Assembly: GCA_035457485.1 (NCBI GenBank)
Contig: DATIBO010000006.1
Location: 306,659-370,658, forward strand
DNA from: Candidatus Saccharimonadales bacterium
GTDB taxonomy: Bacteria; Patescibacteriota; Saccharimonadia; Saccharimonadales; EFPC-124
Direction of reading: 5' to 3'
Length of the DNA: 64,000 bases
The notes under the pieces are model-generated. The model did no database searches. It saw only the letters and a list, made by a program, of their open reading frames with translations, and had not been told where the DNA came from. The first letter of the stretch is position 1. Each line of letters starts with the position of its first letter. Of this stretch, positions 29,213-61,063 are shown one piece after another. Both the position numbers and the translations under genes were made by a program.

Positions 29213-29313
29213 GTTGTGTTGGGACCGGCCATCGTTTGCATAAACTTATCTTGCTTTTTTATAAGAAATGTTGTATAAAATATTTCTGGGAAACTAGTCA
29301 ACCGGAGGTAGAA

Positions 29314-29886
29314 ATGCACTGGGTTGTTCGAGCGGTTCTGACGGGGTCTATGCCACCGTTGAGTTCCGTCGAAAAGTCGGAGTACATCGAGAACTTCAAC
29401 GCGATTGCCGATCGGGTCACCAAGGTGACGTTGATCGAAGAGCAGAAGTCGGTGTACGCGCAGCGTAAGGCCTCGGGGCTCGACAACGCGCAGAAGAACG
29501 CGGCCGTCATGGCGAACATCGCTGTGGTTGCGGCGGGCATCATCGCCCTAATCAATGCCGACGTCAGTCTGGCGTCAATGGCGCTGGTCGCCACCTCGCT
29601 CGTCTTCATGATCCTCGCTGTGGTGATCTCGTACGTGATGTTCGCGCCCAAGTCCAAGAACTGGAAGCGTGCAAGTCGCAACGAGAACACCCGCCGGACA
29701 TCGCTCAAGCGAGTCCAAGCGGCCGCCAATGGCGATGATGCTCTTCTGGAGTACATATACCTCGAGGCGGTCGAAGGCGAGCATCACTGGAACTACCTGC
29801 TGCTACTGGAGCGCCGCGAGTTCGGGCTGATCTGCGTGCTGAGCGCGCTCGGCCTGATCCTGTCCGCGCTCAGCCTGCTCTTCTGA
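29314..29886 (+). CDS. GC-rich membrane protein (190 aa; cytosolic N-domain, central TM pair, C-terminal TM)
   Basis: Start moved to the ATG after CGGAGG. The first 26 track codons are AT-rich and unlike the rest. G/C-ending codons. Confidence 0.6.
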   Translation: MHWVVRAVLTGSMPPLSSVEKSEYIENFNAIADRVTKVTLIEEQKSVYAQRKASGLDNAQKNAAVMANIAVVAAGIIALINADVSLASMALVATSLVFMILAVVISYVMFAPKSKNWKRASRNENTRRTSLKRVQAAANGDDALLEYIYLEAVEGEHHWNYLLLLERREFGLICVLSALGLILSALSLLF

Positions 29887-29904
29887 GCGGGCGTTTCCCA
29901 CAGA

Positions 29905-29936
29905 CTCCGGTCCTGCGCAAGTGTGCGGGGCCGGAG
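29905..29936 (+). terminator. GC-rich hairpin after 29314-29886
   Basis: CTCCGG...CCGGAG outer stem with an inner GCGC/GTGC stem. No long T-tract. Confidence 0.45.
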
Positions 29937-30011
29937 TTAGGAAGAACTTATTTTGACAAAGAACATCATTTATTAGAAAATATTTCAGCACCAAATAGAA
30001 GGAGGTGCTGG

Positions 30012-30563
30012 ATGAGGAAAATCCTCATCGGACTAGCCGTGCTTAGCCTGGCGCTGAGCGGCTGTGCTATCCGCGACGAGGTCAACGAGACCACGGCCGA
30101 GATTCAGGCTGAGAACAGCCGGCAGGAACATCTGGCTCTGCTCGACAGTCTGATGTCTGGCAAGGGTTGGTACGGTTCCGGTCTCGACGCCAACGGTCGC
30201 GAGATCGCCCACGAGGAGCAGGCGGACGGCTCGTTCGCTTATCTGGTGGAGGTCGGTCACAACAACCGCTTTTGCCAGCCGGTGTTCATGATGGTGAGAA
30301 AGGCGACGGCCACAACCGAGACGAAGTTGGAGCCCAAGAACTGGGGTTTCAAGATCGTTCGACTTCAGCCGGAGCCGAAGACTCAACACTTGCCCACACT
30401 GGATCCGGTCGACGGCGAGATCCTGGCCAAGGACCTGCCTGCTGAGTGGAGGGTGATGGACCTGGATGCTGCGACCTACAAGAAGCAGCTCGAGGTGATC
30501 ACCGCCAATCCGCAGGGCGAGTCGCAGGAGCGGATCGCTAACCTCTGCAAGTCCAAGCGGTAA
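30012..30563 (+). CDS. GC-rich lipoprotein (183 aa)
   Basis: Lipobox LALSGC after a signal peptide (MRKILIGLAVLSLALSGC). AGGAGG upstream. Confidence 0.7.
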   Translation: MRKILIGLAVLSLALSGCAIRDEVNETTAEIQAENSRQEHLALLDSLMSGKGWYGSGLDANGREIAHEEQADGSFAYLVEVGHNNRFCQPVFMMVRKATATTETKLEPKNWGFKIVRLQPEPKTQHLPTLDPVDGEILAKDLPAEWRVMDLDAATYKKQLEVITANPQGESQERIANLCKSKR

Positions 30564-30593
30564 GTGTCGGGTTAGCCCGGCCGTACCCATGGC

Positions 30594-30621
30594 GGGGGAG
30601 TCGCTTCAGTGCGACTCCCCC
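30594..30621 (+). terminator. GC-rich hairpin after the lipoprotein gene
   Basis: GGGGGAGTCGC-N6-GCGACTCCCCC, a perfect 11-bp stem. Confidence 0.55.
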
Positions 30622-30646
30622 AGGAAAGAACTCATATTATAATTCG

Positions 30647-30958
30647 CTAATGCTTCTTTTTAGCTTGTCTTTCGAGTACCCATTTCATTGATGGGCTTAA
30701 CGGTTTGTCGGTCCGGTGGATACATCCCACCCAGCAACAGGGGCGACGCTTGCCTTCAGAGAGCTCATTTATTGTTCTCTCAACGTGGTTTTTGCGTGTG
30801 TCGGCTTGTTTGACCGTTGTAACCCAACAAATCCATTCATTGCGGGCAAGGGGGGTGATATTTTCCCAGGCTTGAAGTGACTTCGGGCGGGCTAGCAGCG
30901 CCGCGCGTAAGTCTGTCGACAATTTATGAACAGTTCCGCCGGAGATTTTTATGGCCAT
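30647..30958 (-). CDS. YdeI/OmpD-associated family protein
   Basis: LQAWENITPLARNEWICWV...KRRPCCW is typical of the YdeI family. Confidence 0.6.
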   Translation of the reverse strand: MAIKISGGTVHKLSTDLRAALLARPKSLQAWENITPLARNEWICWVTTVKQADTRKNHVERTINELSEGKRRPCCWVGCIHRTDKPLSPSMKWVLERQAKKKH

Positions 30959-30996
30959 AAGTTTATTTTACAGCAAATTTGGTCCGGTTCGACAAG

Positions 30997-31437
30997 CTAC
31001 GCGGTGGCGCTTGATTTCACCTCAGCGATTCGGGCGCGCACGGTATTTTGTAGGTGCGCAATAGCTTGCTCCTTGTTTTTGCGAGCATCTGTAATTATGT
31101 CAGGTGAATTTTTTAATTCGCTATGTGTATCACTCCAAAGCATCATCTCAACCATCGTTGGAATCAAGTCGATGCCACGCTCAGTTAAGATGTAAGTTTG
31201 TTTGGTTTTGCTTTTGCGCTCGGCGTCAAACTGTTTTTCAATAATTCCTGCATGCTCTAACATTTTTAATCGTTGTGCCAAAATGTTTGTGGCGATTTTT
31301 TCGTTGGATTCAAGCATTTCTTTGTAGGTCAACTTCCCCGAAAAAACCATGTCACGGACAATTAGTAAGCTCCACTTGTCGCCAAGTGTTTCCAAAGCAA
31401 AATTTAACGGACAGTCTGAACGAAGGCTTTGCAACAT
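30997..31437 (-). CDS. HxlR-family transcriptional regulator
   Basis: CPLNFALETLGDKWSLLIVRDM is an HxlR signature. Divergent from an MFS gene. Confidence 0.85.
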   Translation of the reverse strand: MLQSLRSDCPLNFALETLGDKWSLLIVRDMVFSGKLTYKEMLESNEKIATNILAQRLKMLEHAGIIEKQFDAERKSKTKQTYILTERGIDLIPTMVEMMLWSDTHSELKNSPDIITDARKNKEQAIAHLQNTVRARIAEVKSSATA

Positions 31438-31456
31438 AACGTGATTTTAGCAAATT

Positions 31457-31475
31457 AACTTGCATTTTGCAAGTT
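31457..31475. promoter_or_regulatory. Candidate HxlR operator (perfect palindrome)
   Basis: AACTTGCA-TTT-TGCAAGTT in the hxlR/MFS divergent intergenic region. Confidence 0.45.
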
Positions 31476-31581
31476 TATAATGTAACCTGCAATACATAAG
31501 CTAAAAAAGTAGGAATTTTTATGGCAAAAAATACAGATCGTGCCGCGCTCACGACGCAAATTTTAATGCGAAAGGTAAGTT

Positions 31582-32925
31582 GTGAATAAAAAAGTAATTT
31601 TGTTTTTGGCATGTTTAGCGCAATTTATTGTAATTGTAGACCTTGCCATTGTTAACGTTGCTCTACCGACAATAGGCCAACAGATGTCGTTAACTTCAAG
31701 TGCACTGCAATGGATTGTAGTTGCTTACGGTCTATTTTTTGGTGGCTTTTTATTAATGGGCGGTCGCTTAGGCGATGTTCTGGGTCGCCGCAAAGTACTT
31801 TTGAGCGGTCTTACCTTGTTTACAGCAGCGTCTTTGGTGGCTGGATTTGCGGACTCTGCCCTTGTCTTGATTGCGGCCCGTGCTGTGCAAGGTCTGGGTG
31901 CGGCATTAATTGCGCCGTCAGCTTTAGGTATTCTAGCCTCGACGTTTGCCGAAGGTAAAGAACGCGCTAAAGCCTTGGGTGTTTTTGGTGCTGTTGGTGG
32001 CGCAGCCGGATCTGTTGGAGTTGTAGCAAGCGGTTTATTAACCGATGGTCCAGGTTGGCAGTGGATATTTTTTATCAACATCCCGCTTGGTGCTTTGTTG
32101 ATTGCCTTAGCTTTGAAAAACTTACCCAAAGAGACACGTACTAAAAACGAACGCATCGATGTACTCGGTGCCGCGTCTGTTACAGGTGGACTTCTGGCCT
32201 TTATTTACGGATTAAACCATGCCGTCGAAGCCGGATGGACTTCGCCGCTGACTCTGGGTGCATTTGCAGTAGCCATCTTATTGTTTGTAGTTTTTTGGCG
32301 CAGTGAATCTCGCTCGAGTGACCCGCTTGTACCGTTTGCCGCGCTTAAAAATCGAACGTCGTCTGCTTCGTTACTGATCGGGCTGTTCACGTTCGGAGCG
32401 CTGTTTGCGTTCATATATATGACCTCGCTTTATATGCAGCAACAGCTCCACTTTTCGCCAACGCAAACTGGTGTAGCTTGGTTAGTAATGTCGGTGTCCT
32501 CGTTTGCGGCATCTATTTTTACTGGAGCTAAATTGCTTGGCCGGCTTTCTATTAAACAACTCTTATTTATAAGCTTGTCAGCAATGGTTGTAGGTGTGCT
32601 TTGGATTTTACGCGCACCGGCTGAACCTATGTTTATGCTAGATATCGTGCCTACACTTTTACTTATGGGAATTGGTGGTGGTATGGCGATCCCAGCCATT
32701 CAGGTTGGGGCACTGACTGGTGTCGAGCCTAAGCGTGTCGGCCTGATATCGGGCTTGGCCGAAACTACTCGTGAGCTTGGCGCCGTCGTCATTATCGCCG
32801 GTGTTACAACTGCGATTGTTATGCAAGATGCTTTACTGGCAGGATTTCGAGCTGGTTTTGCGGTAATTGCAAGTGCTGCGATTTTGGCGATCGTGATCGC
32901 TGCAGTCGTGTTCAGAAAAAAGTAA
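31582..32925 (+). CDS. MFS transporter, DHA2 (EmrB/QacA)-like
   Basis: VDLAIVNVALPTI, GGRLGDVLGRRKVL and 14-TM-type length. GTG start. Confidence 0.85.
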   Translation: MNKKVILFLACLAQFIVIVDLAIVNVALPTIGQQMSLTSSALQWIVVAYGLFFGGFLLMGGRLGDVLGRRKVLLSGLTLFTAASLVAGFADSALVLIAARAVQGLGAALIAPSALGILASTFAEGKERAKALGVFGAVGGAAGSVGVVASGLLTDGPGWQWIFFINIPLGALLIALALKNLPKETRTKNERIDVLGAASVTGGLLAFIYGLNHAVEAGWTSPLTLGAFAVAILLFVVFWRSESRSSDPLVPFAALKNRTSSASLLIGLFTFGALFAFIYMTSLYMQQQLHFSPTQTGVAWLVMSVSSFAASIFTGAKLLGRLSIKQLLFISLSAMVVGVLWILRAPAEPMFMLDIVPTLLLMGIGGGMAIPAIQVGALTGVEPKRVGLISGLAETTRELGAVVIIAGVTTAIVMQDALLAGFRAGFAVIASAAILAIVIAAVVFRKK

Positions 32926-37099: not shown

Positions 37100-37596
37100 T
37101 ATTCGGCCCTCACTTCGCTGGCAGAAGTTAGTGTTTGGCTCGCCTTAAATTCACTGCGATCGCCGGTTAACTCACCACCAATTGTGAACTTGATGTTGTT
37201 TGAGTTGCCGTGGCTTAAGTTTTCAAAGCTCAAGGTAGCATTAACATCCTGTGGTGTTAAATTGCATGGGTTGGTTGCCGGGCAGGGGGCGGAACTTCCC
37301 CATCCGATTCGTACACGGCCAGAGCTTAAGTCTATTACTGTTGGGTTGCGGGCTGCGTCGAGCGAAGCCAAAGAGACCGAGGTCGGGGTAACTGAATTTA
37401 TTGCGCTTGCGGCTCTAATTTCGAGCTCAATTCGACTGCTTGCAAACCGCAAAGAATTGCTAAGCTTTTGTTGAGTTTGGCTTTTACTGCTAGTGTAGAT
37501 AGCATCCCAGCCAAAAATAACCGCCGACAGAACCAAAATGCTGACTAACCCCACGTAAAGAATTACTTCGATAAATGTAAAACCTGATTTTTTCAT
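37099..37596 (-). CDS. Minor (pseudo)pilin with prepilin-type N-terminus
   Basis: KKSGFTFIEVILYVGLVSIL. Confidence 0.75.
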   Translation of the reverse strand: MKKSGFTFIEVILYVGLVSILVLSAVIFGWDAIYTSSKSQTQQKLSNSLRFASSRIELEIRAASAINSVTPTSVSLASLDAARNPTVIDLSSGRVRIGWGSSAPCPATNPCNLTPQDVNATLSFENLSHGNSNNIKFTIGGELTGDRSEFKASQTLTSASEVRAE

Positions 37597-39011
37597 TGTG
37601 GCCCCGCTACGATTAATTCTGCAGAATTATCATCAGTAACGGCGTAAAGACGATCTTGGCCTGCGGAATAACTTACGCCATTGATATCGGCGCTAGTGTT
37701 GAGTGAGCCGAGTAGAACTGGCGTGGTTAAAGCTGTGTGGTTGATAACCTGGAGCTCCATAGTGTTTTCGTCGGTTGCAGCAAACAAGTAGTTGTTACTG
37801 TTAAAAAGTTCTAAGTCGTTAACGCTAGCTTGCGCGTTAAAAGTGCTGATCTGCACTGGTGAGGCTGGCGTTGTTACATCGATGTAGTGAACTAGGCCGC
37901 CTACCCGGCCAATAATTGCCGTATTAGAAAAGCTTGTGACCGATAGCGCATCGACGTTTCCTGAGGCGTCAAACGAGCTGGTTAAGCTGGGAGTGGTCGG
38001 AGTTGTTACGTTTATAATTTGCAACTCGGCGTTATTACCAGAGGTTGCAGCGTAAGCGTAGGTTTGGTCTGGTTTTACGAAGATGTCGTTGACTGAATTG
38101 GTTCCTAGGCTTAAAGTGCCCAGTAACGTAGGCGAAGAAGGCGTAGTTATATCGATTGTCAAGAAGCTGCCCGCTCTACCAAGGTAGGCGATATTGCCAA
38201 CTGCATATACGCTAAGGCCATTAGCGTTTCCGGATGCGTTAAAACTACCAATTAAAGATGGGCTTGCGGGGTTGGAAATGTCAACAATCTGGAGCTCCTG
38301 AGAGTTAGAGCTAGAGCTTACTAGCGCAGTCGAGCCAATTACATAAAGGTTTGTCGGTGCGTTGCTTAAAGTTAAGCTGCCGACAACGCTTGGGCTTGCG
38401 GGGTTGCTAATGTCCACTGCATAAAAGTTTGTTCCACTACTGGCTATAACGAAAGCATAGTTGCCCTTAACCTGAACCTTTAGGCCATTATTGTTACCAC
38501 TTAAATTAAGACTCCCAACTTGCTGAGGCGTGGCCCACCCGCTGGTGATTGCCTTTGCGAAGTTAGTTAAGTACGTGATGAACGAAACCGAATTAGTTCG
38601 TGTTGGTGAAAAGTTCCAGGTGACGGTTGAGGTTACTTTAAATAAGTCTGGGTCTGCTGTTCCGCCGCTGTCAACTATTTCGTTGCCGCTCCCGCGCTGA
38701 CCAGGAGTAAGATTTACCTGGCGCGTGAACTTGCCAATAGCTTGACTAGTTCCTGCAAATTCCCAAAAGCCGTTCGTGGTGGTTAGGCCGTGGTCGCCCG
38801 GGGTGAGGTTGTTCCAATTTTGAGCACGAATTGATCTTGTAGCTTCGATCGCCTCCTGTGATAAGTCTTTAGCTACTCCCAGCTCTTGCTCGAGTCGGTT
38901 GACGGATAAGCTGTGTAATATTGCGGTGGTACCACCCGCAAAAGCCACTGTAAATATTCCTATAGCGACGATTACCTCGATAATACTAAATCCAAAAATG
39001 CGCCGCATCAA
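37593..39011 (-). CDS. Prepilin-type N-terminus fused to a multi-repeat LVIVD-type beta-propeller (candidate pilus tip adhesin)
   Basis: FGFSIIEVIVAIGIF leader region. At least 6 repeats of the form (V/I)D(I/V)(S/T)xPxSPxxxG(S/T)(L/F). Confidence 0.7.
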   Translation of the reverse strand: MMRRIFGFSIIEVIVAIGIFTVAFAGGTTAILHSLSVNRLEQELGVAKDLSQEAIEATRSIRAQNWNNLTPGDHGLTTTNGFWEFAGTSQAIGKFTRQVNLTPGQRGSGNEIVDSGGTADPDLFKVTSTVTWNFSPTRTNSVSFITYLTNFAKAITSGWATPQQVGSLNLSGNNNGLKVQVKGNYAFVIASSGTNFYAVDISNPASPSVVGSLTLSNAPTNLYVIGSTALVSSSSNSQELQIVDISNPASPSLIGSFNASGNANGLSVYAVGNIAYLGRAGSFLTIDITTPSSPTLLGTLSLGTNSVNDIFVKPDQTYAYAATSGNNAELQIINVTTPTTPSLTSSFDASGNVDALSVTSFSNTAIIGRVGGLVHYIDVTTPASPVQISTFNAQASVNDLELFNSNNYLFAATDENTMELQVINHTALTTPVLLGSLNTSADINGVSYSAGQDRLYAVTDDNSAELIVAGPQ

Positions 39012-39427
39012 TTATCCTCTAGTGTGCCTACCGGGCTTAAGGTTAGGTTGATCGAACGATTATCGCCGCTAACTGTTAATGATAACGTTTGCGATGGTTC
39101 GCCGCGTGGGCTATTGAAGCTTACGTCGCTAAGGCCCGTAACATTCACGCTTTGCGGAATCGAAAAATCCTCACTAAAAGCAGGCGAAGAGCAACTGCTG
39201 CTATAAAGTCTGATGGTACTGGAAGTCTGGCAAACACCCCATGGCCCGCTACCCTTATTTGACATGGCATATGACTGAGCTTTAAGGAGGTAGCTTTTTA
39301 ATATCCCAACTGTCGATATAAATTGCTGTTGTCTGAGTGAATTTGCCGCAAATGGCGCGGTTGCTGTCGCCAGTATGGCAATAAGCGCGATAACCAAAAT
39401 TACTTCTAAAAAACTCACACCTTTCAT
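39008..39427 (-). CDS. Minor pilin (GspH/FimT-like) with prepilin-type N-terminus
   Basis: MKGVSFLEVILVIALIAILA. Confidence 0.7.
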   Translation of the reverse strand: MKGVSFLEVILVIALIAILATATAPFAANSLRQQQFISTVGILKSYLLKAQSYAMSNKGSGPWGVCQTSSTIRLYSSSCSSPAFSEDFSIPQSVNVTGLSDVSFNSPRGEPSQTLSLTVSGDNRSINLTLSPVGTLEDN

Positions 39428-40485
39428 ATTGATAAACTATAAGTTAGGTTGTAAATCGGGCTAAGTAGCGCGATCGCGAACAACCCCACGCTGACCCCCA
39501 AAATAAGAATAAGTACAGGCTCAATGGTTGTGGATATGTTTCTTATCGAATCGTTGACTTCTTCGCGGTAAAAACTTGATAGATATATGAGGTTTTCGTC
39601 GAGATTACCACTCTTTTCGCCTACCACAATCATTCTGGTTACTAGTGGTGGGTAAAGATTATGGTTGTCAATTTTAGCTATACTTTTACTGATCGAGGTT
39701 CCAGATTTTAGGAGTTTAGCGATTTTCTCGAGACTATCACGATATTCTTTGTTAGTTAGGGTTGGTGCTGTTGTCTCTATGGATGTGGCAACAGGTAGGC
39801 CACTCTTAAGAAGTGTGCCAAGGTTTCGTGAAAGTCGCTCTAACTGAGATGATCTAACAACGTCGCGGATGATCGGCAGGTTTAGTAGTGTACTTTGCCA
39901 CCACGGGGAAAGAATAGTGCGAGCTAAAATTACGAATAGAGAAACCAGGACAATTAAACCGATAATTATAGAAATGCCGTAGTCGCTCAAAAAGCCTAAG
40001 AAATTTAGTAAAAATTTGGTCGAGGTTGGAACCGATTCGAACGCCTGCGAGAATTCGATCAATCGCGGAAAAACAATAACGCTCACGATAATTCCAACGA
40101 CGACAAGAGTTACCAGTATGATTGCTGGATAAATCAGAGCCCCTCCGATTCGTGTTTTTAGCCGATATTCGTTCTCGAGTTGCTGCGCTAAAAAAGCTAA
40201 GTTCTCGTTAAGTGACCCCGTTGCTTCACCCGAGGCAACAACGCTTGTGTAAAAGTCATCGAAGATTTTAGGGTACTTTTTTATTGATTTGGTCAGTGTT
40301 TGCCCGTTGTTGATGCTATCGGCTATGCCGCCGAGTGCGATTTTAAGCTGTTTTGATTTTGTTTGCTCTTGCAGAGTTTTTAGAGAATCAACCGGCGAAA
40401 TTCCACTTTTTAGCATTAAAGATAAGTGTCTTGTAACCAACATTTTTTCTTTTAACAGATTCCGCGTGCCAAAAAGTTCGTTCAC
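39424..40485 (-). CDS. pilC: Type IV pilus platform protein PilC (GspF family)
   Basis: 353 aa with duplicated GspF domains and 3 TM segments. Overlaps pilB by 4 nt. Confidence 0.85.
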   Translation of the reverse strand: MNELFGTRNLLKEKMLVTRHLSLMLKSGISPVDSLKTLQEQTKSKQLKIALGGIADSINNGQTLTKSIKKYPKIFDDFYTSVVASGEATGSLNENLAFLAQQLENEYRLKTRIGGALIYPAIILVTLVVVGIIVSVIVFPRLIEFSQAFESVPTSTKFLLNFLGFLSDYGISIIIGLIVLVSLFVILARTILSPWWQSTLLNLPIIRDVVRSSQLERLSRNLGTLLKSGLPVATSIETTAPTLTNKEYRDSLEKIAKLLKSGTSISKSIAKIDNHNLYPPLVTRMIVVGEKSGNLDENLIYLSSFYREEVNDSIRNISTTIEPVLILILGVSVGLFAIALLSPIYNLTYSLSI

Positions 40486-42161
40486 ATTACTTCCTTTATG
40501 ATCCCCAAAATTTCGTCCAAACTAGTAATACCCTGTCTAACTTTATTCAGGCCATCTTCTATAAGTGGTTGCATCCCATTTTTTATGGCGAGATCGCGAA
40601 TGACCTGAGTGTCTTTTTTGTCGGTAATAGCTTTACGAATTTCTTTGTTAGTTTCGAGTACTTCAAAAATTCCTGTCCGACCGCGGTATCCTGTATTAAA
40701 ACAAACTGAGCAACCCTTACCTTTATATGCGCTAAGCTCGGAGATGCTTGAACCAAAGTACTTTTCAATTTCCTTTTTTTCATCGGCAGTAATCTCGTGT
40801 GTTACTCGACAATTTCGACATAGACTACGGACTAATCTTTGTGCAACGATTGAATTCAGCGCGCTCGCTACCAAATAAGCCTCAACACCCATTTCTGACA
40901 TGCGCGCGGGAACTGTCGCTGCATCGTTTGTATGGAAAGTGGACATCACGAGATGACCGGTAAGTGCAGCGTTTATTGCGATGTCGGCTGTTTCTTGATC
41001 TCGGACTTCGCCGACTAGAATAACATTAGGGTCTTGGCGAATTATTGAGCGTAATCCTTTTGCAAAAGTTAGACCTGCTGCCGGATTAACTTGGATTTGG
41101 CGGATTCTTTCGATCTGGTATTCCACTGGATCCTCGATTGTCATTATGTTGAGCTCCGGCTTGTTTATGAGCTTCAAAATTGCATACATTGTGGTTGTTT
41201 TGCCGCAGCCGGTCGGACCGGATGCTAAAAGCATTCCTCGCGATTTTGAGTAAGCTGACTTAATTTTTTGTAGATTGGCCGCCGAAATACCGAGTTCGTG
41301 AATTGAGAGCTCGTGAATATTTTCAGACAAAAGCCGTAGCACAATGTTTTCGCCACGAGTTGTTGGCACTATAGACACTCGAATGTCGATTTGTTTTTCA
41401 TCGGCCAGAAAGGGTATGCTACCATCTTGCGGGCTAAAATGCTCGTCTATTTTTAAATTAGATATGACCTTAATGCGTGTTATGACCTGGTCGAATAAAT
41501 TAGCCGAGATGGTCGTTACGTCATGCAAAATTCCATCGACGCGGAATCTTATTAAGGTTGAATTCTCGCTAGGTTCAATATGAATGTCCGATGCTTTGCT
41601 TCGATAGGCGTAGAGTATTAGTAGGTCTACCAGCTCGATAATATTAGGCCTAGCATCGGAGGGTCTTACCTCGGCCTGCGCTATGCTTGTTGCTAGCTCG
41701 GTTAAAAGATTACCTAAGTAATTCAACAGCGCATCAACAATGTCATTATCGGTGGCATAATAGAGTTCAATTGGTAAATTACTCTTTTGCTTGATCCAAT
41801 CGATCGTGGCCGGTTCTTGCAAGGGGGAGGATGTGGCGACTTTTAGTTTGGTCCCGTTTTTTGCAAACGCGATTAGTTTATGCTTTTGGGCGAAATCCTC
41901 AGGTACTATCTGTAGCACATCAAGTGGTAAGGATATTTGTGAAAGCTGCACGAATGGTAGCTTGTAAAGGTCGGCGACAATTTGACCCAAGATTACGTCG
42001 TCTACCAGCCCTTGATCGGAGATGACTTTTGCTAATGTTTGGCCGCTTTGCTTCGCAAGTGAATATGACTCTTGTAACGACTGAGCCTCCACAATGCCAG
42101 ACTTTCTCAAGAAATCCAAAAGAGATGTGTCGATATCAATGTTCTTCATCGTCCTTACCAT
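40482..42161 (-). CDS. pilB: Type IV pilus assembly ATPase PilB (GspE family)
   Basis: Walker A GPTGCGKTTT, Asp/His boxes, tetracysteine motif (CxxC...CxxC). Confidence 0.92.
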   Translation of the reverse strand: MVRTMKNIDIDTSLLDFLRKSGIVEAQSLQESYSLAKQSGQTLAKVISDQGLVDDVILGQIVADLYKLPFVQLSQISLPLDVLQIVPEDFAQKHKLIAFAKNGTKLKVATSSPLQEPATIDWIKQKSNLPIELYYATDNDIVDALLNYLGNLLTELATSIAQAEVRPSDARPNIIELVDLLILYAYRSKASDIHIEPSENSTLIRFRVDGILHDVTTISANLFDQVITRIKVISNLKIDEHFSPQDGSIPFLADEKQIDIRVSIVPTTRGENIVLRLLSENIHELSIHELGISAANLQKIKSAYSKSRGMLLASGPTGCGKTTTMYAILKLINKPELNIMTIEDPVEYQIERIRQIQVNPAAGLTFAKGLRSIIRQDPNVILVGEVRDQETADIAINAALTGHLVMSTFHTNDAATVPARMSEMGVEAYLVASALNSIVAQRLVRSLCRNCRVTHEITADEKKEIEKYFGSSISELSAYKGKGCSVCFNTGYRGRTGIFEVLETNKEIRKAITDKKDTQVIRDLAIKNGMQPLIEDGLNKVRQGITSLDEILGIIKEVM

Positions 42162-42519
42162 TCAAAAGCGAGATAGCCTTACTAACGACTTTTGTCAGTG
42201 AAACGTGTGACTTTACCAAGTAATCTTTTGCGCCCAGACTTTTGGCTCGCCGAATGTCTTCTGGTTGACTCAAATTTGAAAGCACAAGAACCAGCTTGTT
42301 TTTATCACGAACACTTTCTAGCACGTCCCAGCCATCTAAATTCGGCATTAAAATGTCTAAAATAATGAGATCGAAGCTATTTGACTCGATCAGAGGAATA
42401 GCTTCAACGCCGTCAAGAGCGACTGTCGCTAGAAAACCGTCGGCTTCAAATCGCTGTTTTAAAGCTTTGGCGAGAGCCTCTTCATCTTCAATTATTAAAA
42501 CGCTAAACTGTTTTTTCAT
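42136..42519 (-). CDS. Response-regulator receiver protein
   Basis: VLIIEDEE...DLIILDILMPNLDG...K. Located between the kinase and pilB. Confidence 0.85.
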   Translation of the reverse strand: MKKQFSVLIIEDEEALAKALKQRFEADGFLATVALDGVEAIPLIESNSFDLIILDILMPNLDGWDVLESVRDKNKLVLVLSNLSQPEDIRRAKSLGAKDYLVKSHVSLTKVVSKAISLLNGKDDEEH

Positions 42520-43558
42520 CTTGCAATCCTTTCTTGCGCATTCCAGTTAGAGGTATAGATACATAAAATGTTGTACCAGGATGTTTAGGTGAGCCAGACT
42601 CTGAAGGTGATGTGTACCAAATTTTTCCGCCCGCTTCTTCTATAAGGCGTTTTGCATCAAACAAACCTAAACCAACGCCACGCGGGTCGGCGAGCCTAGC
42701 TTCTTCTGATCTAAAGAATTTAGTAAACATCTGTTCTCGATATCGTGGTGAGATTCCAAATCCTGTGTCTTCGACGGTGCAAATAACGTTTTTTGCTTGG
42801 TCGAGCGAGTGTGATATATTAACTGATCCACCAGGCGGGGTGTAGGTAATTGCATTAGAAACCAATGTGCGATACACAGTTCCAAGGATATTAGGATCAA
42901 CTTTAATTACGGGTATTTCATCATGTGACTCACGTATGTAAACTCCTTTTTTGTTTGCTTCATTCTTGAAATACTCTACGGCGCTGTGCATGATTTTGAC
43001 CACATCTCCAGGTACGGGATCGATCGCAAAAGTGTTGAGTTCGATTCGCGAGGCATAGAGTAGCTCATCGGTTGTCTCAATTGCCTTGAGTGTGGCAACC
43101 TCGGCCTCGAGTAAGTAGCTTTTCTGCTCGTCGTTCAGCGTTGGGTCATGTGAAAGACTCTCGACGTACCAACGAATAACTGTTAGTGGAGTTTGAAGTT
43201 GGTGCCCAGCGAGCGAAATAAATTGGGTCTTAGCATCGTCAAGCTCTTTTTGCTTTGTCATGTCGGAGTGCACCTCGACGAAAAATTCAACCTCCTTGTG
43301 GTCATCTAATACCGGAAAAATCATCGCTCGGCTGTAAAAAATGCTGCCATCTTTACGCTTGTTTTTGAACTCACCTATAAAAGGCTTTTTTTGCAATTTT
43401 ATAGTCTGCCATAGCTTTTTATAAAACGACTTTGGCATAAGACCGCCCCAAAGTTCTTTTGAGCCAACTTTTTTACCGACAACTTCGTTAAGTGGGAATC
43501 CAGTTAGTTCCTCGACGGCTTTATTGGCGTAAAAAACCGTACCGTCAACATCAGTCAT
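42503..43558 (-). CDS. PAS-domain sensor histidine kinase
   Basis: PAS (DVDGTVFYANKAVEELTG), H-box AGHQLQTPLT, N/G boxes. The frame stays open 81 nt upstream with no canonical start, so the PAS N-terminus may be clipped or use an unusual start. Confidence 0.8.
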   Translation of the reverse strand: MTDVDGTVFYANKAVEELTGFPLNEVVGKKVGSKELWGGLMPKSFYKKLWQTIKLQKKPFIGEFKNKRKDGSIFYSRAMIFPVLDDHKEVEFFVEVHSDMTKQKELDDAKTQFISLAGHQLQTPLTVIRWYVESLSHDPTLNDEQKSYLLEAEVATLKAIETTDELLYASRIELNTFAIDPVPGDVVKIMHSAVEYFKNEANKKGVYIRESHDEIPVIKVDPNILGTVYRTLVSNAITYTPPGGSVNISHSLDQAKNVICTVEDTGFGISPRYREQMFTKFFRSEEARLADPRGVGLGLFDAKRLIEEAGGKIWYTSPSESGSPKHPGTTFYVSIPLTGMRKKGLQDEKTV

Positions 43559-43717
43559 AGTAATATGATCTGATGAGTTATCGGTTGCTAGTTTAAATAT
43601 TTGCGGGTTAATATTTTTCGTTCCAATAACTTAATAAGTTAGTATAAGCATATTGTAACATTAAATAAACTAACATAAATTTTATTTTTTAATCGATATT
43701 TCGATACAATTAATATA

Positions 43718-46304: not shown

Positions 46305-46333
46305 TTGACATGGGCGTGACGGTAAACTACAGT
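46305..46333 (+). promoter_or_regulatory. Sigma70-like promoter upstream of the lasso precursor
   Basis: TTGACA-17 nt-TACAGT in AT-rich sequence about 65 nt upstream of the precursor ATG. Confidence 0.5.
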
Positions 46334-46399
46334 TTTTATTTGTGCGTTGTACATACACACATCGCACGTACCCACGAATCCCGCAAAGGGGGTGAATGA

Positions 46400-46516
46400 A
46401 TGAACTTCGACGAGGAGTACGAGGTCCCGGCCACGCAGGAGATCGGTGGCGTGGTGGAAATCACGCTCGGCTCGGCCGGCAACGACAAGAAGGACGACAC
46501 CCAGTACTGGGTGTGA
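46400..46516 (+). CDS. Lasso peptide precursor (38 aa; predicted 23-aa leader + 15-aa core)
   Basis: Not in the track, which shows a different frame. Translation: MNFDEEYEVPATQEIGGVVEITL|GSAGNDKKDDTQYWV. AAGGGGGTG lies 5-7 nt upstream. Thr at -2, Gly1 and Asp9. Immediately upstream of C-B1-B2. Confidence 0.8.
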   Translation: MNFDEEYEVPATQEIGGVVEITLGSAGNDKKDDTQYWV

Positions 46517-46524
46517 CGTCCGAA

Positions 46525-46556
46525 CCTCGAGGCCAGGCTTGCGCCTGGCCTCGAGG
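46525..46556 (+). promoter_or_regulatory. Perfect 14-bp GC hairpin between precursor and cyclase genes (attenuator/stabiliser)
   Basis: CCTCGAGGCCAGGC-TTGC-GCCTGGCCTCGAGG. No T-tract follows. Confidence 0.6.
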
Positions 46557-46579
46557 CCCCATCTACTCAAAGGAGTAAT

Positions 46580-48349
46580 ATGCAATGGGTTGCAGGGTTC
46601 TGGCCTCGACGAGACGCCATGAACAAACCTGTGGTTTTCCCAAAAAACTCACATGCCCACAATATGCTGTGGAATGTTGGGTACGAATGTACCGAGTTCC
46701 GTCGATTTAGCTCTGGTTCCACAACCGTCACGGTTGTAGGATCATGTCTGGCTACAGACGTCGAACTCAACGCCGCACTCCCAGCCGCCGATTCCGAGCG
46801 CTGGGAGATTTTTGCACAGTGGCCAGGTTCGTACATTGCCGTTGTGCAAAGAGCGCATGAAGCAGTAGTGATTACTGATCTTGCTGGGGCGAAACCGGTC
46901 TTCTGGGTAAAAACCGACTCTGGATGGTGGTGGTCGACAGCAGCGACACCTTTGGCGGCGTTGATGCGGTCAAAGGTTAACATTCGAGCACTTCTTACGC
47001 CTCTGATGGTGGCAGGAGTAGATGCGTGGGGCGGAGAAACGCCTTACGAGAAGGTGATGGTAGTTAAGCCGGGTTCGGTTCTTCGCCTGTCACATGACGG
47101 GCCGAAGGTCGAAACTTGGTATAAGCCAACGGTATTGTCGTTCGCCGAAGGGCAGCACAATTTCCGCGCCGCTCTCACTGATTCAGTCGGTCGGCGAGCA
47201 GCCCTAGGTGACATCTCTAGCGATTTGTCGGGAGGTATCGACTCAAGCCTTATTGCGCTGCTCGCAAGCCGCTTGACGGTTGTTCACGGAGCGACCTATG
47301 TTGATCCGTGGCAAAGAAACGATGACGCCGATTATGCTCGGCGCGTCGCAGGGTTCGGCGGAATCAGGCAAATTCTTGTCGAAGGCGACCAAACAACCAC
47401 TCACTACAGCGATCTCGATGAAGCGCCATTTACGGATACACCGTCGGCCGATGGGGTCTTGTTCGGCTACAACCGAGCAAAGCTTCAAGCTGTGAAGGCG
47501 GCGGGTTCTCGACACCATCTAACCGGAGCTGCGGGTGATTGCATGCTTTTGTCTCCCTACCCATGGGTGGCGGAGCTGTATAAGCACCAGCGGCTTCAGG
47601 CTCTCCGTTGGGCGCGCCAAGAAGCTCGGCGTCGTTTGACGTCAAGTCGGCGATTCATCCTCGCAACGCGTCGACTGGCTACAACATCATTTGCCAATGA
47701 AGCCGCAAGGCTGGCAGGCGGAGTTGAGGTGGCCGAAAAGACGGCATGGTCTTCAGTCTGCTGGCTTAAGTGGATGGAGTCCGCCATCTGGCTAACCGAA
47801 CAAGGTCGCTCGATGTTGTGTGGTCGTCTCGAGGAGATATCCTACGAGTTGGATCCGCCCGAGAATCCTGGCGCGAATCTCGATTGGCAAAGTCTTAGGG
47901 CTACGGCGATCGAGCGCACGACCGCGGTTGAGTTTGCGCGTTCCATTGGAATCACGCTCCACAATCCGTTTTTCGACACTCAGGTGATTGATGCTTGCCT
48001 GTCGATTCCGGGATATGAGCGTGCTCCCCTGGACACGTTTAAGCCGCTAGCAACGCTGGGCTTTATGGCAGAGTTGCCGGAGTTTTTGCGCCAGCGTCGC
48101 ACTAAGGGCGACTTTGCCGGCACGATGCTTCACGGTATTCTGTTTAACCAGCACTGGCTGAAGCGCATGATCGAAAGTTCGGCTCTGGTAGAAATGGGGT
48201 TGATCGACAGAGATCAGCTACGTCAAAGTGTTCAATCTGCGATTTACGGATTTGACACTCAGCTGCGCGGGATTCACCACCTGACTACGATCGAAATGTG
48301 GTTGAGGTCCCGCGATCTGCGTCCTACTGTTTGGTGGGAGATGCTGTGA
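46580..48349 (+). CDS. Lasso peptide cyclase (asparagine synthetase-like, C protein)
   Basis: 589 aa with the PP-loop ATP-pyrophosphatase motif DLSGGIDSS. AAGGAG RBS. Lasso cluster context. Confidence 0.85.
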   Translation: MQWVAGFWPRRDAMNKPVVFPKNSHAHNMLWNVGYECTEFRRFSSGSTTVTVVGSCLATDVELNAALPAADSERWEIFAQWPGSYIAVVQRAHEAVVITDLAGAKPVFWVKTDSGWWWSTAATPLAALMRSKVNIRALLTPLMVAGVDAWGGETPYEKVMVVKPGSVLRLSHDGPKVETWYKPTVLSFAEGQHNFRAALTDSVGRRAALGDISSDLSGGIDSSLIALLASRLTVVHGATYVDPWQRNDDADYARRVAGFGGIRQILVEGDQTTTHYSDLDEAPFTDTPSADGVLFGYNRAKLQAVKAAGSRHHLTGAAGDCMLLSPYPWVAELYKHQRLQALRWARQEARRRLTSSRRFILATRRLATTSFANEAARLAGGVEVAEKTAWSSVCWLKWMESAIWLTEQGRSMLCGRLEEISYELDPPENPGANLDWQSLRATAIERTTAVEFARSIGITLHNPFFDTQVIDACLSIPGYERAPLDTFKPLATLGFMAELPEFLRQRRTKGDFAGTMLHGILFNQHWLKRMIESSALVEMGLIDRDQLRQSVQSAIYGFDTQLRGIHHLTTIEMWLRSRDLRPTVWWEML

Positions 48350-48615
48350 AGCTTTCTCAGGATGCATACCCTGTGTTCGACAAGCTTACGGGATCGGCGT
48401 ACGTTCTCCTGCTCAGGACTGGCAAGTGGCGTTTTTTTAATCCGTCGGCCGGAAAGCTGTTAAAGCAACTAGCCGACGGTGTAGATCTGGAAACGGCTCT
48501 ACGAAACGTCGCCGCAGGATACAGGAGGCCGGTTGACGTCGATGTCTTAAGGATCGACATGGAGCCCGTACTTCGGGCAATGATCGACCTCGGAATCCTA
48601 GAGGAGAACGAGTGA
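48346..48615 (+). CDS. PqqD-like RiPP recognition element (lasso B1 protein)
   Basis: 89 aa from a GTG overlapping the cyclase TGA (GTGA). The track gives a longer in-frame ORF from 48298. Size and position fit B1. Confidence 0.7.
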   Translation: MKLSQDAYPVFDKLTGSAYVLLLRTGKWRFFNPSAGKLLKQLADGVDLETALRNVAAGYRRPVDVDVLRIDMEPVLRAMIDLGILEENE

Positions 48616-49028
48616 CAGTTAATATGCTGCCGCCAGATAGTTCTGGCAGTGGGCTGAGCCTTGGCTACAAAGTCCTGGGTTTTCTGAGCCTTCTTTTGGC
48701 GGTCACTTCACTTCGAGTTCTGTCCTTGGCGACGTTGGTTACCACCTTGATCAAGGTGAAGCCTGATCGTGCAGCCAGCTCAAGGCAGGCAGAGGACTAC
48801 ATCCGCGCTATTCAGTGGGCAGGTAATTTCTACTTCGGTAGAGTTGCCTGCCTAGAAAGAGCTGTCGGTGTCGCAATCCTCGCGGCCATGGTCCGCAGGC
48901 GGGTTACAAGTTGCATTGGTGCTCGCTTTCGACCCAACGAGTTCCATGCTTGGACTGAGGTCGACGGCACTCCGGTCATGGAGATCGAAAGTGCCGATTG
49001 GCCCTACCAAGCCGCGGTAAGGTTTTAG
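48612..49028 (+). CDS. Transglutaminase-like cysteine protease (lasso leader peptidase, B2 protein)
   Basis: 138 aa with Cys in GRVACLERA and His/Asp in EFHAWTEVDG. The GTG overlaps the B1 stop. Confidence 0.8.
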   Translation: MTVNMLPPDSSGSGLSLGYKVLGFLSLLLAVTSLRVLSLATLVTTLIKVKPDRAASSRQAEDYIRAIQWAGNFYFGRVACLERAVGVAILAAMVRRRVTSCIGARFRPNEFHAWTEVDGTPVMEIESADWPYQAAVRF

Positions 49029-49033
49029 GGTAC

Positions 49034-49062
49034 GGTCTGCATGGCATCCAGCTATGCAGACC
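49034..49062 (+). terminator. Hairpin closing the lasso cluster
   Basis: GGTCTGCAT-N11-ATGCAGACC, a 9-bp stem 6 nt after the B2 stop. Confidence 0.5.
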
Positions 49063-49253: not shown

Positions 49254-50099
49254 ATGGTCTTAAGCTCAGTTCGCAAAATAAGCAGATTTTTTATTGGACT
49301 TTTGGTTTCGGCTTTAATGGTTTTACCAGCGGTCGGCGTTCAAGCAGCTGCACCAGGCAGTTTATATAGCTACACTCTTGATGGCGCGTCAGCGACAGTG
49401 ACGAATAATGCCGCAGCTAACACCAACGTAAACCTTAACTTACTCGGTGATTGGTCGCAAACTAGCTTTGGGGTCAAGTTCGAGGGCAACACAACTAATA
49501 AGCAGTCTGTAGGCTATGCTAAACCAGCTAGCGGCAGTACCATTAACGTTCCTGCTTCGCAAGCATTCGGCGGAAGTGTCTTGTTTAAGTACCAGGCACC
49601 AACAAGCGGAACGTGCTTTGCAGACTCGCCAAACATCACACAAATTGGCAAATATGGCGCGGGTCTTACGCAGTTTAAATTTCAAATAAGTAATTGTGGC
49701 AAGAGTCAAACTGCAGTGTTTCCCCAGTGTCGTGTTGCGGGAAGTAGTGGCGCGAACAATCCAGTAATGGGAACTCAATCCCTGATCGATGGCTACGATT
49801 ATATTTTGCAGTGTATAAAATCTCCAGATCCAGCTAGCGGGAGCGCAAGTTTGCAAATGAACTTGACTAAAATTGACCCAGTAAATGGTAATGTGACCTA
49901 CACAAACAATTTTGCGATTAACAAAACTGGAACACTTAATTCCACTCAGTATTTAAGTGTTGCCAATCAATACCCACTTAAGTCGCAGGCAAACAACACT
50001 GATCAATTTAACGGTGAAGTTTCGAAAGTTGCTTATTGCACCGGCGCAACTGTAGCCGACGCACAAATTTGTTTGGATACAGAAGTACCTCTACAGTAA
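49254..50099 (+). CDS. Secreted protein (281 aa), unknown function
   Basis: Signal peptide ending VGVQAAAPG. Thr/Asn/Gly-rich beta-type sequence. GGGGAGG RBS. Confidence 0.6.
   Translation: MVLSSVRKISRFFIGLLVSALMVLPAVGVQAAAPGSLYSYTLDGASATVTNNAAANTNVNLNLLGDWSQTSFGVKFEGNTTNKQSVGYAKPASGSTINVPASQAFGGSVLFKYQAPTSGTCFADSPNITQIGKYGAGLTQFKFQISNCGKSQTAVFPQCRVAGSSGANNPVMGTQSLIDGYDYILQCIKSPDPASGSASLQMNLTKIDPVNGNVTYTNNFAINKTGTLNSTQYLSVANQYPLKSQANNTDQFNGEVSKVAYCTGATVADAQICLDTEVPLQ

Positions 50100-59589: not shown

Positions 59590-59595
<6 letters not shown>
59534..59595. repeat. tRNA-Glu 3'-flank unit (master copy) incl. terminator-like hairpin
   Basis: AACAAAAAAGCCCCACAAAATAAATTATGGAACTCTTTCGTATCTGTTGATAATTTTGGTGA, duplicated at 53721-53782. 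Confidence 0.7.
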
Positions 59596-59664
<69 letters not shown>

Positions 59665-59822: not shown

Positions 59823-60854
59823 TTACTTGGCCGGCGCCTTCGGGTCGGGGATGGTGATCCCCAGCCCGGCTCCCCCGAGGGAGAGCAGGCCGTCCGGCAG
59901 GGCGTTCAGCGCGTCGATCTGTGCGCAGCTCGGGCACGTGTTGTACCCGCGCTGGCGCGCCTCGTTCGCGTCGGCGTCCAGCACGGCCTTGGCCTTGGCC
60001 GCCTGCGCGGCGTTGGCGTCGGCCCAGGCGGCCAGCGTCTTGTCGATGCTCGTCTGAACCTTGTCGCTGATGACCAGTTCGACGCTGTTGAACACGACCT
60101 TGATCTCGCCGACCCAGCCGCCGAGCTTGGCCAGCTCTTCCTCGAGCCGCTTCTGCACGGCCGTCTGGATCTTCTCCCGGTTCGACGTCGCCTCAGGCGT
60201 CATCGCATCCGGGTTGATCACCTCCACGGGAGTCTGACCAGGCTTGACCTCGGTGGTGGTCTGCGGCTTGACCAGCTTGCACTTCGGGTTGAGCGCAGTG
60301 CAGTCGTACTTGACGATCTCGTCGCGGATGGCCGCGTCCGAGGCCTTGATCAGCACCGCGTCCAGGAAGGCGCGCCACCCCTTGAGCTCGTCGTACGAGT
60401 CGGACGGGAAGTAGAACTCCCCGTCGGCGCCCCGGTACTTGCGCGAGCCGTAGCTCGCGTCGAACTCCTTCAGCTTCTCGGCGTCACCCGTGATCGTGAT
60501 CAGCATCTGCCCCTTGATGCCGACGTCGATGCCGTCGCGCGTGGGGAAGGCGTTGTAGTTCACGCCGGGCTCGTCGGTCTTGTATGCGCCGACGAAGTCG
60601 ATGGGCTGCGGGGAACTGGGGTAGTACCGGACCTTCGACCACCAGCCGGTCCACTTGATGTTGGAGCCGGATCCGATGGTCATGAAGGGCTTACGGTCGT
60701 CGAACGGGCCGCCGTTGCGGACGACCGCGATCTGGCCGCTCTCGGTACTGGTGTAGCTGTCGAGAACGCCGACGAAGCCGACGCTACCGATCAGCGCGAG
60801 GAGGACGAAGAAGCCCTTCGTGGGCCCCGATCGCTCTCTCAGCCAGTCGATCAT
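59823..60854 (-). CDS. GC-rich membrane-anchored SPFH/band-7 (prohibitin-like) domain protein
   Basis: N-terminal TM, then GQIAVVRNGG...-type SPFH start, and a C-terminal Ala/Lys-rich coiled region. Start at the ATG after GGGAG. Strongly G/C-ending codons. Confidence 0.6.
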   Translation of the reverse strand: MIDWLRERSGPTKGFFVLLALIGSVGFVGVLDSYTSTESGQIAVVRNGGPFDDRKPFMTIGSGSNIKWTGWWSKVRYYPSSPQPIDFVGAYKTDEPGVNYNAFPTRDGIDVGIKGQMLITITGDAEKLKEFDASYGSRKYRGADGEFYFPSDSYDELKGWRAFLDAVLIKASDAAIRDEIVKYDCTALNPKCKLVKPQTTTEVKPGQTPVEVINPDAMTPEATSNREKIQTAVQKRLEEELAKLGGWVGEIKVVFNSVELVISDKVQTSIDKTLAAWADANAAQAAKAKAVLDADANEARQRGYNTCPSCAQIDALNALPDGLLSLGGAGLGITIPDPKAPAK

Positions 60855-61063
60855 GGCAAACTCCCAGTTGTGCATGAGCAATACGGTTGCTCACCCGGAG
60901 AAGATTAAAATCCCCTCATAAAAAAGCCAGAAAGCCCTGGCCGTCTTAAGAAGAGATTTTTGTCTTCAGCGATCTAAAATATACAACTTTTTTTACTAAA
61001 CGTCAACTATTTTGTATATTGTGCACTTCTCCTTTTAAGCTCGATCTGTTATCCTATAGGTCG

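Follow-up and report, generated by a model that had tools for sequence, protein, structure and literature searches.

The question raised by this locus is whether a reduced genome of the candidate phyla radiation (CPR) can encode a complete pathway to a lasso peptide and, if so, what the product would be and from where the genes came. The window analyzed, meaning the whole stretch of DNA of 64,000 nucleotides, derives from an 889,392-bp NCBI contig of the metagenome-assembled genome (MAG) of a Candidatus Saccharimonadales bacterium, with inspection covering 64 kb of the ~889-kb contig. Secondary-metabolite clusters have rarely been reported from CPR bacteria. A soil survey listed just linear azol(in)e-containing peptide (LAP), lanthipeptide and terpene clusters in these organisms (PMC7298704) and a second survey gave zero such clusters in MAGs of Patescibacteria (PMC11613949). 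No publication on a lasso cluster of Saccharibacteria turned up in full-text literature searches. We here propose, with a probability of roughly 0.85 and judging from the sequence, that positions 46400-49028 of the window hold an intact minimal class II lasso operon, the mechanism of which is predicted by homology with characterized split-B systems. The CPR-like nature of the genome, as proposed in the initial annotation, agreed both with the NCBI source name and with a flanking gene for a 468-aa membrane protein, having relatives exclusively in Patescibacteria/Saccharibacteria MAGs.

The complete operon was formed by four co-directional open reading frames (ORFs) on the + strand in the order A-C-B1-B2, with the coordinates, gene order and split B function of the initial annotation all being borne out by the ORF list together with the family matches. 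These were the precursor gene A (46400-46516, 38 aa, with the leader at 46400-46468 and the core at 46469-46513), the Asn-synthetase-like lasso cyclase C (46580-48349, 589 aa, HSE29343.1), the PqqD-like leader-recognition protein B1, corresponding to a RiPP recognition element (RRE), RiPP denoting peptides that are made by the ribosome and modified after translation (48346-48615, 89 aa, HSE29344.1), and the transglutaminase-like leader peptidase B2 (48612-49028, 138 aa, HSE29345.1). It was also clear from the sequence that the C/B1 and B1/B2 junctions were GTGA start/stop overlaps, as had been noted, both with GTG starts and each preceded by a GGAG-type ribosome-binding site, with GGGAG found 5 nt upstream of the B1 start. 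The precursor had indeed escaped annotation, with no GenBank record and with its exact sequence absent from a 15-billion-protein collection. B1 was merely named a hypothetical protein, yet the cyclase and B2 had already been automatically annotated as lasso enzymes, the GenBank (PGAP) name of HSE29343.1 being albusnodin/ikarugamycin family macrolactam cyclase and that of HSE29345.1 being 'lasso peptide biosynthesis B2 protein'.

The family assignments of the two larger enzymes were firm. The cyclase matched PF00733 (Asn_synthase) at 102.7 bits and passed the NCBIfam model NF033561 at 315.1 bits over residues 3-578, with a curated cutoff of 300, and the PP-loop SGGIDSS pointed out earlier was found at residues 217-223 (nt 47228-47248). 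Its start codon was supported because the N-terminus MQWVAGF matches those of its relatives, resembling MRWIAGW and MHWIAGY. B2 matched PF13471 (Transglut_core3) at 58.5 bits and passed the lasso B2 model NF033537 at 56.6 bits (cutoff 33), while a profile of its relatives gave 113 bits. In an alignment of these relatives C80 (nt 48849-48851), H112 (48945-48947) and E124 (48981-48983) were invariant, which agreed with the Cys and His initially proposed as catalytic residues; the Asp of 'EVDG' (D118), proposed as the third, was not conserved, and E124 is, as seen from the alignment, the more likely candidate. B1 was recognized at 34.9 bits (E 7e-13) by a profile of the cluster-linked B1 proteins of seven relatives and was collinear in alignment with Pfam-positive B1 proteins of related clusters, with its start at 48346 being supported because of this alignment with relatives.

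The precursor is composed of the leader MNFDEEYEVPATQEIGGVVEITL followed by the 15-aa core GSAGNDKKDDTQYWV. Having Thr at -2, Gly at core position 1 and Asp at core position 9, it displayed the features of a lasso precursor, and it carried in all Y-17, P-14, G-8, T-2, G1 and D9, i.e. the same positions as have been reported conserved across 48 precursors of lasso clusters associated with PIMT, the protein isoaspartyl methyltransferase. In an alignment it stood in register with six related precursors, including those of four sister clusters treated below (L041, L042, L043 and L046) and of Streptomyces. The match to NF033521 (lasso_leader_L3) was weak and sub-threshold, at 15.1 bits with a cutoff of 19. 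Asp9 is the experimentally proven ring acceptor in cellulonodin-2 as well as in lihuanodin. In the NMR structure of the latter, a ring of 9 aa is followed by a loop of 4 aa and a tail of 2 aa, the steric locks being Y13 and R14. As the length, D9, T11 and Y13 of lihuanodin are kept in the present core, the product is predicted to be a 9-residue macrolactam between G1 and D9, with a loop of D10-Y13 and a tail of W14-V15; by analogy with the lihuanodin topology we infer that Y13 and W14 would serve as the steric locks, located over and under the ring, respectively. For cyclo(G1-D9)-GSAGNDKKDDTQYWV a mass of 1664.743 Da is predicted, corresponding to [M+2H]2+ at 833.379. By homology with the characterized split-B systems, B1 would bind the leader via its Y-17/P-14/G-8 motif, B2 would act as a Cys80-His112-Glu124 peptidase cutting after Thr-2/Leu-1 and thereby freeing Gly1, and the cyclase would adenylate the side chain of Asp9 at the PP-loop and then join Asp9 to the amine of Gly1.

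Whether this peptide would be further modified was considered in view of the closest characterized families. Because the PIMT methyltransferase is not present in the cluster and the ring has DKKD instead of DTAD, our best prediction from the sequence is an untailored class II lasso peptide having no disulfide bonds. In place of a D(T/S)AD motif, core positions 6-9 are here D6-K7-K8-D9, with D6 and D9 kept but with T/S7 and A8 replaced, and Thr/Ser7 is the residue that helps the aspartimide to form and guides hydrolysis of the latter back to Asp. Using tblastn with a Streptomyces cluster PIMT, no homologue was found within the 64-kb window (best E = 1), and the genes called within ±10 kb had no Pfam family of PF01135/methyltransferase, acetyltransferase or ABC transporter on record. 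Two specific identities of the product could thereby be ruled out, these being a lassimiditide, through the lack of a PIMT in 64 kb together with the DKKD ring, and an albusnodin-type peptide, through the lack of an acetyltransferase within ±10 kb together with Asp10; albusnodin clusters encode the acetyltransferase AlbT, required for production, and the conserved Lys10 of their precursors becomes acetylated. A more general alternative, in which an enzyme encoded elsewhere would either, as a PIMT homologue, aspartimidylate D6 as in lassimiditides or acetylate Lys as in albusnodin, draws on the cyclase passing the albusnodin-family model, on a core in which D6 and D9 of the DTAD frame are retained and two ring lysines are present, and on the fact that the methyltransferases of lassimiditides, which use the mature lasso as their substrate, are able to modify non-cognate peptides as well. 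We nonetheless consider such tailoring improbable, as the enzyme genes were not seen within the distances given above, Thr/Ser7 is replaced by Lys and the Lys10 of albusnodin by Asp, and no tailoring gene was found in any of the four Saccharibacteria sister clusters.

Those sister clusters came from an exhaustive HMMER search with the cyclase over 1.84 billion representatives, yielding 208 matches below E 1e-30. The nearest cyclases were just 38-39% identical, with nothing above 39% among all of these representatives, and all four of the closest cyclases with taxonomically placeable contigs were from Saccharibacteria. Every one of the best matches with readable context was a minimal A-C-B1-B2 cluster with a matching precursor. 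With a slash marking the leader/core boundary, these were L041 from the NCBI Candidatus Saccharimonadales bacterium GCA_035457345.1 (cyclase HSE60792.1; precursor …DLTR/GTAGNNNADGTEYYE), L042 from GCA_964609585.1 (…DETH/GSNGFNDADDTQYDQA), L043-L045 on ENA, JGI and Logan contigs (…EVTL/GNKSNNNADDTEYRE) and L046 on a JGI contig (…VATN/GTNSNNNADDTEYYQ). Saccharibacteria were identified as the source of L043 through a flanking DinB being 89% identical to a Saccharibacteria protein and of L042 through a flanking malic enzyme being 75-78% identical to several, and L046 is probably another Saccharibacteria sister cluster. No accessory genes for export, immunity or tailoring were found common to the four Saccharibacteria clusters, nor any common neighbourhood. 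The initial view that a RiPP pathway is unexpected in a reduced genome thus still applies to the phylum generally, but the present one is not unique, since sister clusters exist in other Saccharibacteria. In a neighbour-joining tree, a cyclase phylogeny having been suggested at the outset, the window cyclase was placed with the Saccharibacteria copies, the Streptomyces lassimiditides forming a separate clade with 100% support. The operon would belong to a small set of 15-residue lasso clusters, deeply diverged and recurring in Saccharibacteria, that would be related to the actinobacterial/firmicute lassimiditides but devoid of their methyltransferase.

Two side observations concern lasso genes in public data. 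In the public assemblies the B2 gene of L041 (L041:7990-8421) was uncalled, with a minus-strand call in its place, as was the B1 gene of L042 (L042:11665-11970), and because lasso genes are missed in this way by gene callers, automated surveys would score these clusters incomplete. Moreover, a 232-kb contig of JGI sample 3300047160, carrying P0003, was a multi-lasso 'farm' with five Asn-synthase-type lasso cyclase genes in tandem within ~16 kb, with a partner of unusual length (213-372 aa), PqqD-like and/or transglutaminase-like, after each of them, which suggests fused B proteins.

Several observations weigh against the proposed reading of the operon and of its history. Of the families initially suggested for confirmation PF00733 and PF13471 matched, but PqqD was only sub-threshold for B1, with curated models giving 17.1 bits (PqqD) and 22.5 bits (lasso_PqqD_Strm). 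The single-sequence AlphaFold model of B1 had low confidence, with a predicted local distance difference test score (pLDDT) of 65 and an unreliable N-terminal half. Its three best matches among 350,542 PDB chains were all TbiB1, a protein that binds lasso leaders (5v1u, 5v1v), with probabilities of 0.91-0.98, root-mean-square deviations of 1.8-2.2 Å and E-values of 0.2-0.6, so that this match in fold of the predicted model is suggestive as supporting evidence only and is non-significant; PDB sequence searches (phmmer) for C, B1 and B2 brought no meaningful match, with no sequence similarity to the TbiB1/TbiB2/TbiC system detectable. Within the precursor, leader position -12 is Thr where the relatives compared have Val or Ala, and core position 8 is Lys, with A8 having been reported important for cyclization of cellulonodin-2. 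In the tree, the grouping with Saccharibacteria cyclases reached a bootstrap of only 29-46%, and we hence claim no resolved Saccharibacteria clade. With the search covering 64 kb of ~889 kb, a tailoring enzyme or an exporter may be encoded elsewhere. Finally, since no empty site was found in relatives, the insertion discussed below is inferred from composition alone. Relatives of the 468-aa membrane protein revealed no such site, as all of their loci were from Patescibacteria and had no other shared neighbour, even in the 77% relative L008, and neither did the relatives of the downstream 281-aa protein in JGI metagenomes, which were 43-46% identical, were found on contigs of 66-69% GC and had no shared neighbours.

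The composition of the locus was that of a GC-rich islet between neighbours of host composition, as initially described, with a GC content of 0.55 in the cluster against 0.45 in the background. The cluster genes had GC of 0.54-0.62 and GC at third codon positions (GC3) of 0.56-0.92, with the enzyme genes at GC3 0.56-0.61, while the flanking genes had GC of 0.40-0.46 and GC3 of 0.40-0.43 and both flanking intergenic regions had GC of 0.40. The cyclase GC3 of 0.56 compared with a host value of 0.43±0.03, being 4.1 standard deviations above 31 host ORFs. Cyclase and host GC3 were 0.58 and 0.60 in L041, 0.59 and 0.59 in L042, and 0.50 and 0.42 in L043, i.e. the cluster matched host composition in L041 and L042, from Saccharibacteria with ~52% GC, and was raised in L043 and in the window. 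The islet is most simply explained as acquired from a higher-GC source, with a composition like that of higher-GC Saccharibacteria. As the window enzymes match the clusters of ~52% GC Saccharibacteria and not those of Streptomyces (GC3 0.86), the donor was plausibly another Saccharibacterium, with the link to actinobacterial lassimiditides then being older.

A recent transfer straight from an actinobacterial host or neighbour, such as a Streptomyces-like donor, must be weighed against this; the islet would then in essence be DNA of Actinobacteria within a Saccharibacteria genome. Cultured Saccharibacteria are epibionts of Actinobacteria, the A-C-B1-B2 order with split B is typical of Actinobacteria, as is the NF033561 subfamily, and the precursor resembles those of the Streptomyces lassimiditides, which end …VTL/GTNNFDTADDTQYKNA, with VTLG…DDTQY in common. 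The cyclase GC1 of 0.60 and GC2 of 0.49, being the GC contents at first and second codon positions, both exceeded host values, and an even more GC-rich gene at 59823-60881 (GC3 0.93) shows that high-GC DNA has been taken up by the host genome. Direct recent transfer is however unsupported because the Streptomyces cyclases (P0004-P0006, from clusters with the order A-C-B1-B2-PCMT) were only 30-33% identical, with all four closest placeable cyclases being from Saccharibacteria, and the enzyme GC3 was far from that of Streptomyces and equal to that of the native-looking clusters of ~52% GC Saccharibacteria. We thus regard this donor as unlikely, while an ancient actinobacterial origin of the whole group is possible.

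Being a compositional outlier in a MAG and not in an isolate genome, the cluster could also be a foreign fragment joined into the Saccharimonadales contig through an error of assembly or binning. The same gene arrangement and junctions were however found in the NCBI contig of 889 kb and again in a 45-kb contig from a separate Logan assembly, although the two may share reads. In the Logan contig the cluster had genes of host composition on both sides, among them pheS, genes for type IV pili and that of the membrane protein restricted to Patescibacteria, and the intergenic DNA next to the cluster was also host-like. As the nearest homologous clusters are moreover themselves embedded in Saccharibacteria contigs, an artefact appears exceedingly unlikely, and acquisition from a higher-GC source, plausibly another Saccharibacterium, is the explanation retained here.

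The precursor gene differed from its operon in codon usage. The precursor GC3 was 0.92-0.95 in the window and 0.89-1.00 in all five mid-GC clusters, for which enzyme codon usage predicts 0.51-0.56 and in which the highest GC3 among segments of the same length inside the enzyme genes was 0.71-0.82; the excess had P <= 5e-6 per cluster after control for amino-acid content. The genes with this excess were found at 46400-46516 in the window, L041:5701-5817, L042:9638-9748, L043:7017-7166 and L046:9808-9930. Two candidate causes were rejected. The excess cannot be the trace of a recent transfer, because it is common to five clusters with ~60% diverged enzymes, including L041 and L042 that match their hosts, and no specific RNA structure accounts for it, because the precursor coding regions fold no better than shuffles (z -1.75 to +0.07). 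The G/C-ending codons noted in the initial annotation are thus present in the cluster, but the bias of the precursor is a conserved peculiarity of the family and no sign of recent transfer. Possible causes are selection for translation rate or yield, acting on the codons, and selection on how GC-rich the mRNA is as a whole.

Signals for expression could also be proposed. A sigma-70-like promoter candidate, TTGACA-17 nt-TACAGT, lies at 46305-46333 (+), 67 nt upstream of the precursor ATG in an intergenic region with a host-like GC of 0.40; it agrees with 10/12 consensus positions, but is a consensus match only, with 3 such sites in the region against 1.8 expected. Shine-Dalgarno sequences, as read from the sequence, were AAAGGGGGTG, a strong site at 46385-46394 (+), 5 nt before the precursor start, and AAGGAG at 46570-46575 (+) for the cyclase. 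Between A and C, at 46525-46556 (+), we found a perfect 14-bp GC-rich hairpin, CCTCGAGGCCAGGC-TTGC-GCCTGGCCTCGAGG, with no T-run after it and not among the five terminator-like sites of a terminator scan. Its folding energy was -36.8 kcal/mol (z = -6.3), with 0/200 shuffles folding equally well, and strong hairpins were present at the same position in six other folded clusters (z -2.3 to -5.75), with one visible in L046, although the hairpin sequences were not conserved between clusters. By analogy with RiPP operons in general, the hairpin probably acts as a partial terminator or 3' stabilizer keeping precursor mRNA above enzyme mRNA. Searching the literature for hairpins between the A and C genes of lasso clusters gave nothing usable. 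The order of elements in the operon would be promoter, A, hairpin, C, B1 and B2.

These features also bear upon the alternative of a remnant, in decay or silent, that has ceased to make a peptide. The cluster is rare within its lineage and has no linked exporter, immunity gene or regulator, as would suit a remnant. Its four intact ORFs, translational coupling, good ribosome-binding sites, PP-loop and invariant Cys/His/Glu speak against this, as do the evident constraint on precursor codon usage and the retention of every conserved leader and core position in the precursor despite ~60% enzyme divergence, making loss of function very unlikely. An intact operon is our preferred reading.

What is already known here is that lasso clusters are common across bacteria, that the predicted chemistry is standard and that the cyclase and B2 are automatically recognized. 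New are the precursor call, the assignment of ring and locks, the lassimiditide scaffold without a methyltransferase, and the recurrence of related clusters in Saccharibacteria. There is no mechanistic surprise, but the locus offers a clean and testable case of natural-product genes from an epibiont lineage that is uncultivated, and a four-gene operon of 2.7 kb, for which the precursor is defined and the product mass exactly predicted, is among the easiest possible entries to a natural product of such a host-dependent lineage. A wider picture, which we put forward only tentatively and hold to be rather doubtful, is that Saccharibacteria with ~1-Mb genomes and an obligate epibiont life have their own deeply diverged, ultra-compact (15-aa) lasso family, derived from lassimiditides of actinobacterial hosts with loss of the tailoring enzyme and aimed at the host or competing epibionts, with a hitherto unrecognized synonymous-site constraint on the precursor setting the precursor:enzyme ratio. 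If true, the precursor GC3 of 0.89-1.00 within genomes or operons of ~0.45-0.6 points to a mechanism at the codon or mRNA level. An antagonistic or host-directed role of the peptide is speculation.

Some further genes of the window deserve mention. Directly downstream of the cluster, at 49254-50099 (+), a 281-aa protein with a signal peptide and no Pfam match is encoded with a host-like GC of 0.44; the only relatives that it had among JGI metagenome contigs (43-46% identity, on L047 and L048) were those on contigs of 66-69% GC, and in no other locus was it linked to lasso genes. Upstream of the lasso region, at ~37500-43600 (L001:1-6979), lies a type IV pilus/type II secretion system (T2SS) set with PilB-like T2SSE, PilC-like T2SSF and N_methyl pilins, adjoining a PAS histidine kinase and a response regulator, as is typical of Saccharibacteria surface machinery. 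The very GC-rich gene at 59823-60881 (-) encodes a 352-aa SPFH/Band_7 protein (PF01145, 38 bits) and, with GC 0.655 and GC3 0.93, is a far stronger outlier than the lasso islet; located ~160 nt from a tRNA gene (59593-59664), it looks, from its sequence, like a recent high-GC acquisition at the tRNA. A second, mildly GC-rich stretch at 29000-31500 (0.53-0.56) contains small ORFs without Pfam match, including a lipoprotein-like 183-aa ORF at 30012-30563, and within it an OmdA/YdeI 'bacteriocin-protection' domain protein is encoded at 30647-30958 (-) (PF13376, 58 bits). The latter gene is adjoined by a 146-aa ORF at 30997-31437 (-), which by its look may be a small transcriptional regulator, and is also near a major facilitator superfamily (MFS)-like transporter gene at 31582-32925.

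Comparing the operon with known systems, TbiB1, TbiB2 and TbiC of Thermobaculum terrenum (PDB 5V1U and 5V1V) likewise have separate leader recognition and peptidase proteins, and TbiB1 was the top fold match of B1, but with the limits of model confidence, E-value and sequence similarity given above. Albusnodin from Streptomyces albus is the namesake of the NF033561 model passed by the window cyclase, but depends on AlbT and Lys10, for which the window has no acetyltransferase family within ±10 kb and an Asp10. The sister clusters L041-L046 share with the window the leader residues Y/F-17, P-14, G-8 and T-2, a core of 15-16 aa with the pattern G-x-x-x-x-x-x-x-D9-x-T-x-Y13, a hairpin between A and C and precursor genes with GC3 of 0.87-1.00, whereas their cores have NNNAD or FNDAD where the window has NDKKD, and their genomic neighbourhoods differ. 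The lassimiditides, of lihuanodin type, have the same A-C-B1-B2 order, the same NCBIfam cyclase subfamily and the same leader pattern of Y-17/P-14/G-8/T-2 as found in the window, and G1, the D9 acceptor, D6, T11, Y13 and the length of 15-16 aa with a 9-aa ring, 4-aa loop and 2-aa tail also recur in its core. They differ in having a cluster PIMT/PCMT and a D(T/S)AD ring, compared in the present case with no such methyltransferase in the cluster or the 64-kb window, a DKKD ring, a cyclase only 30-33% identical to those of Streptomyces and a CPR host. The two thereby form a natural comparison, having one scaffold with the aspartimide machinery either present or absent.

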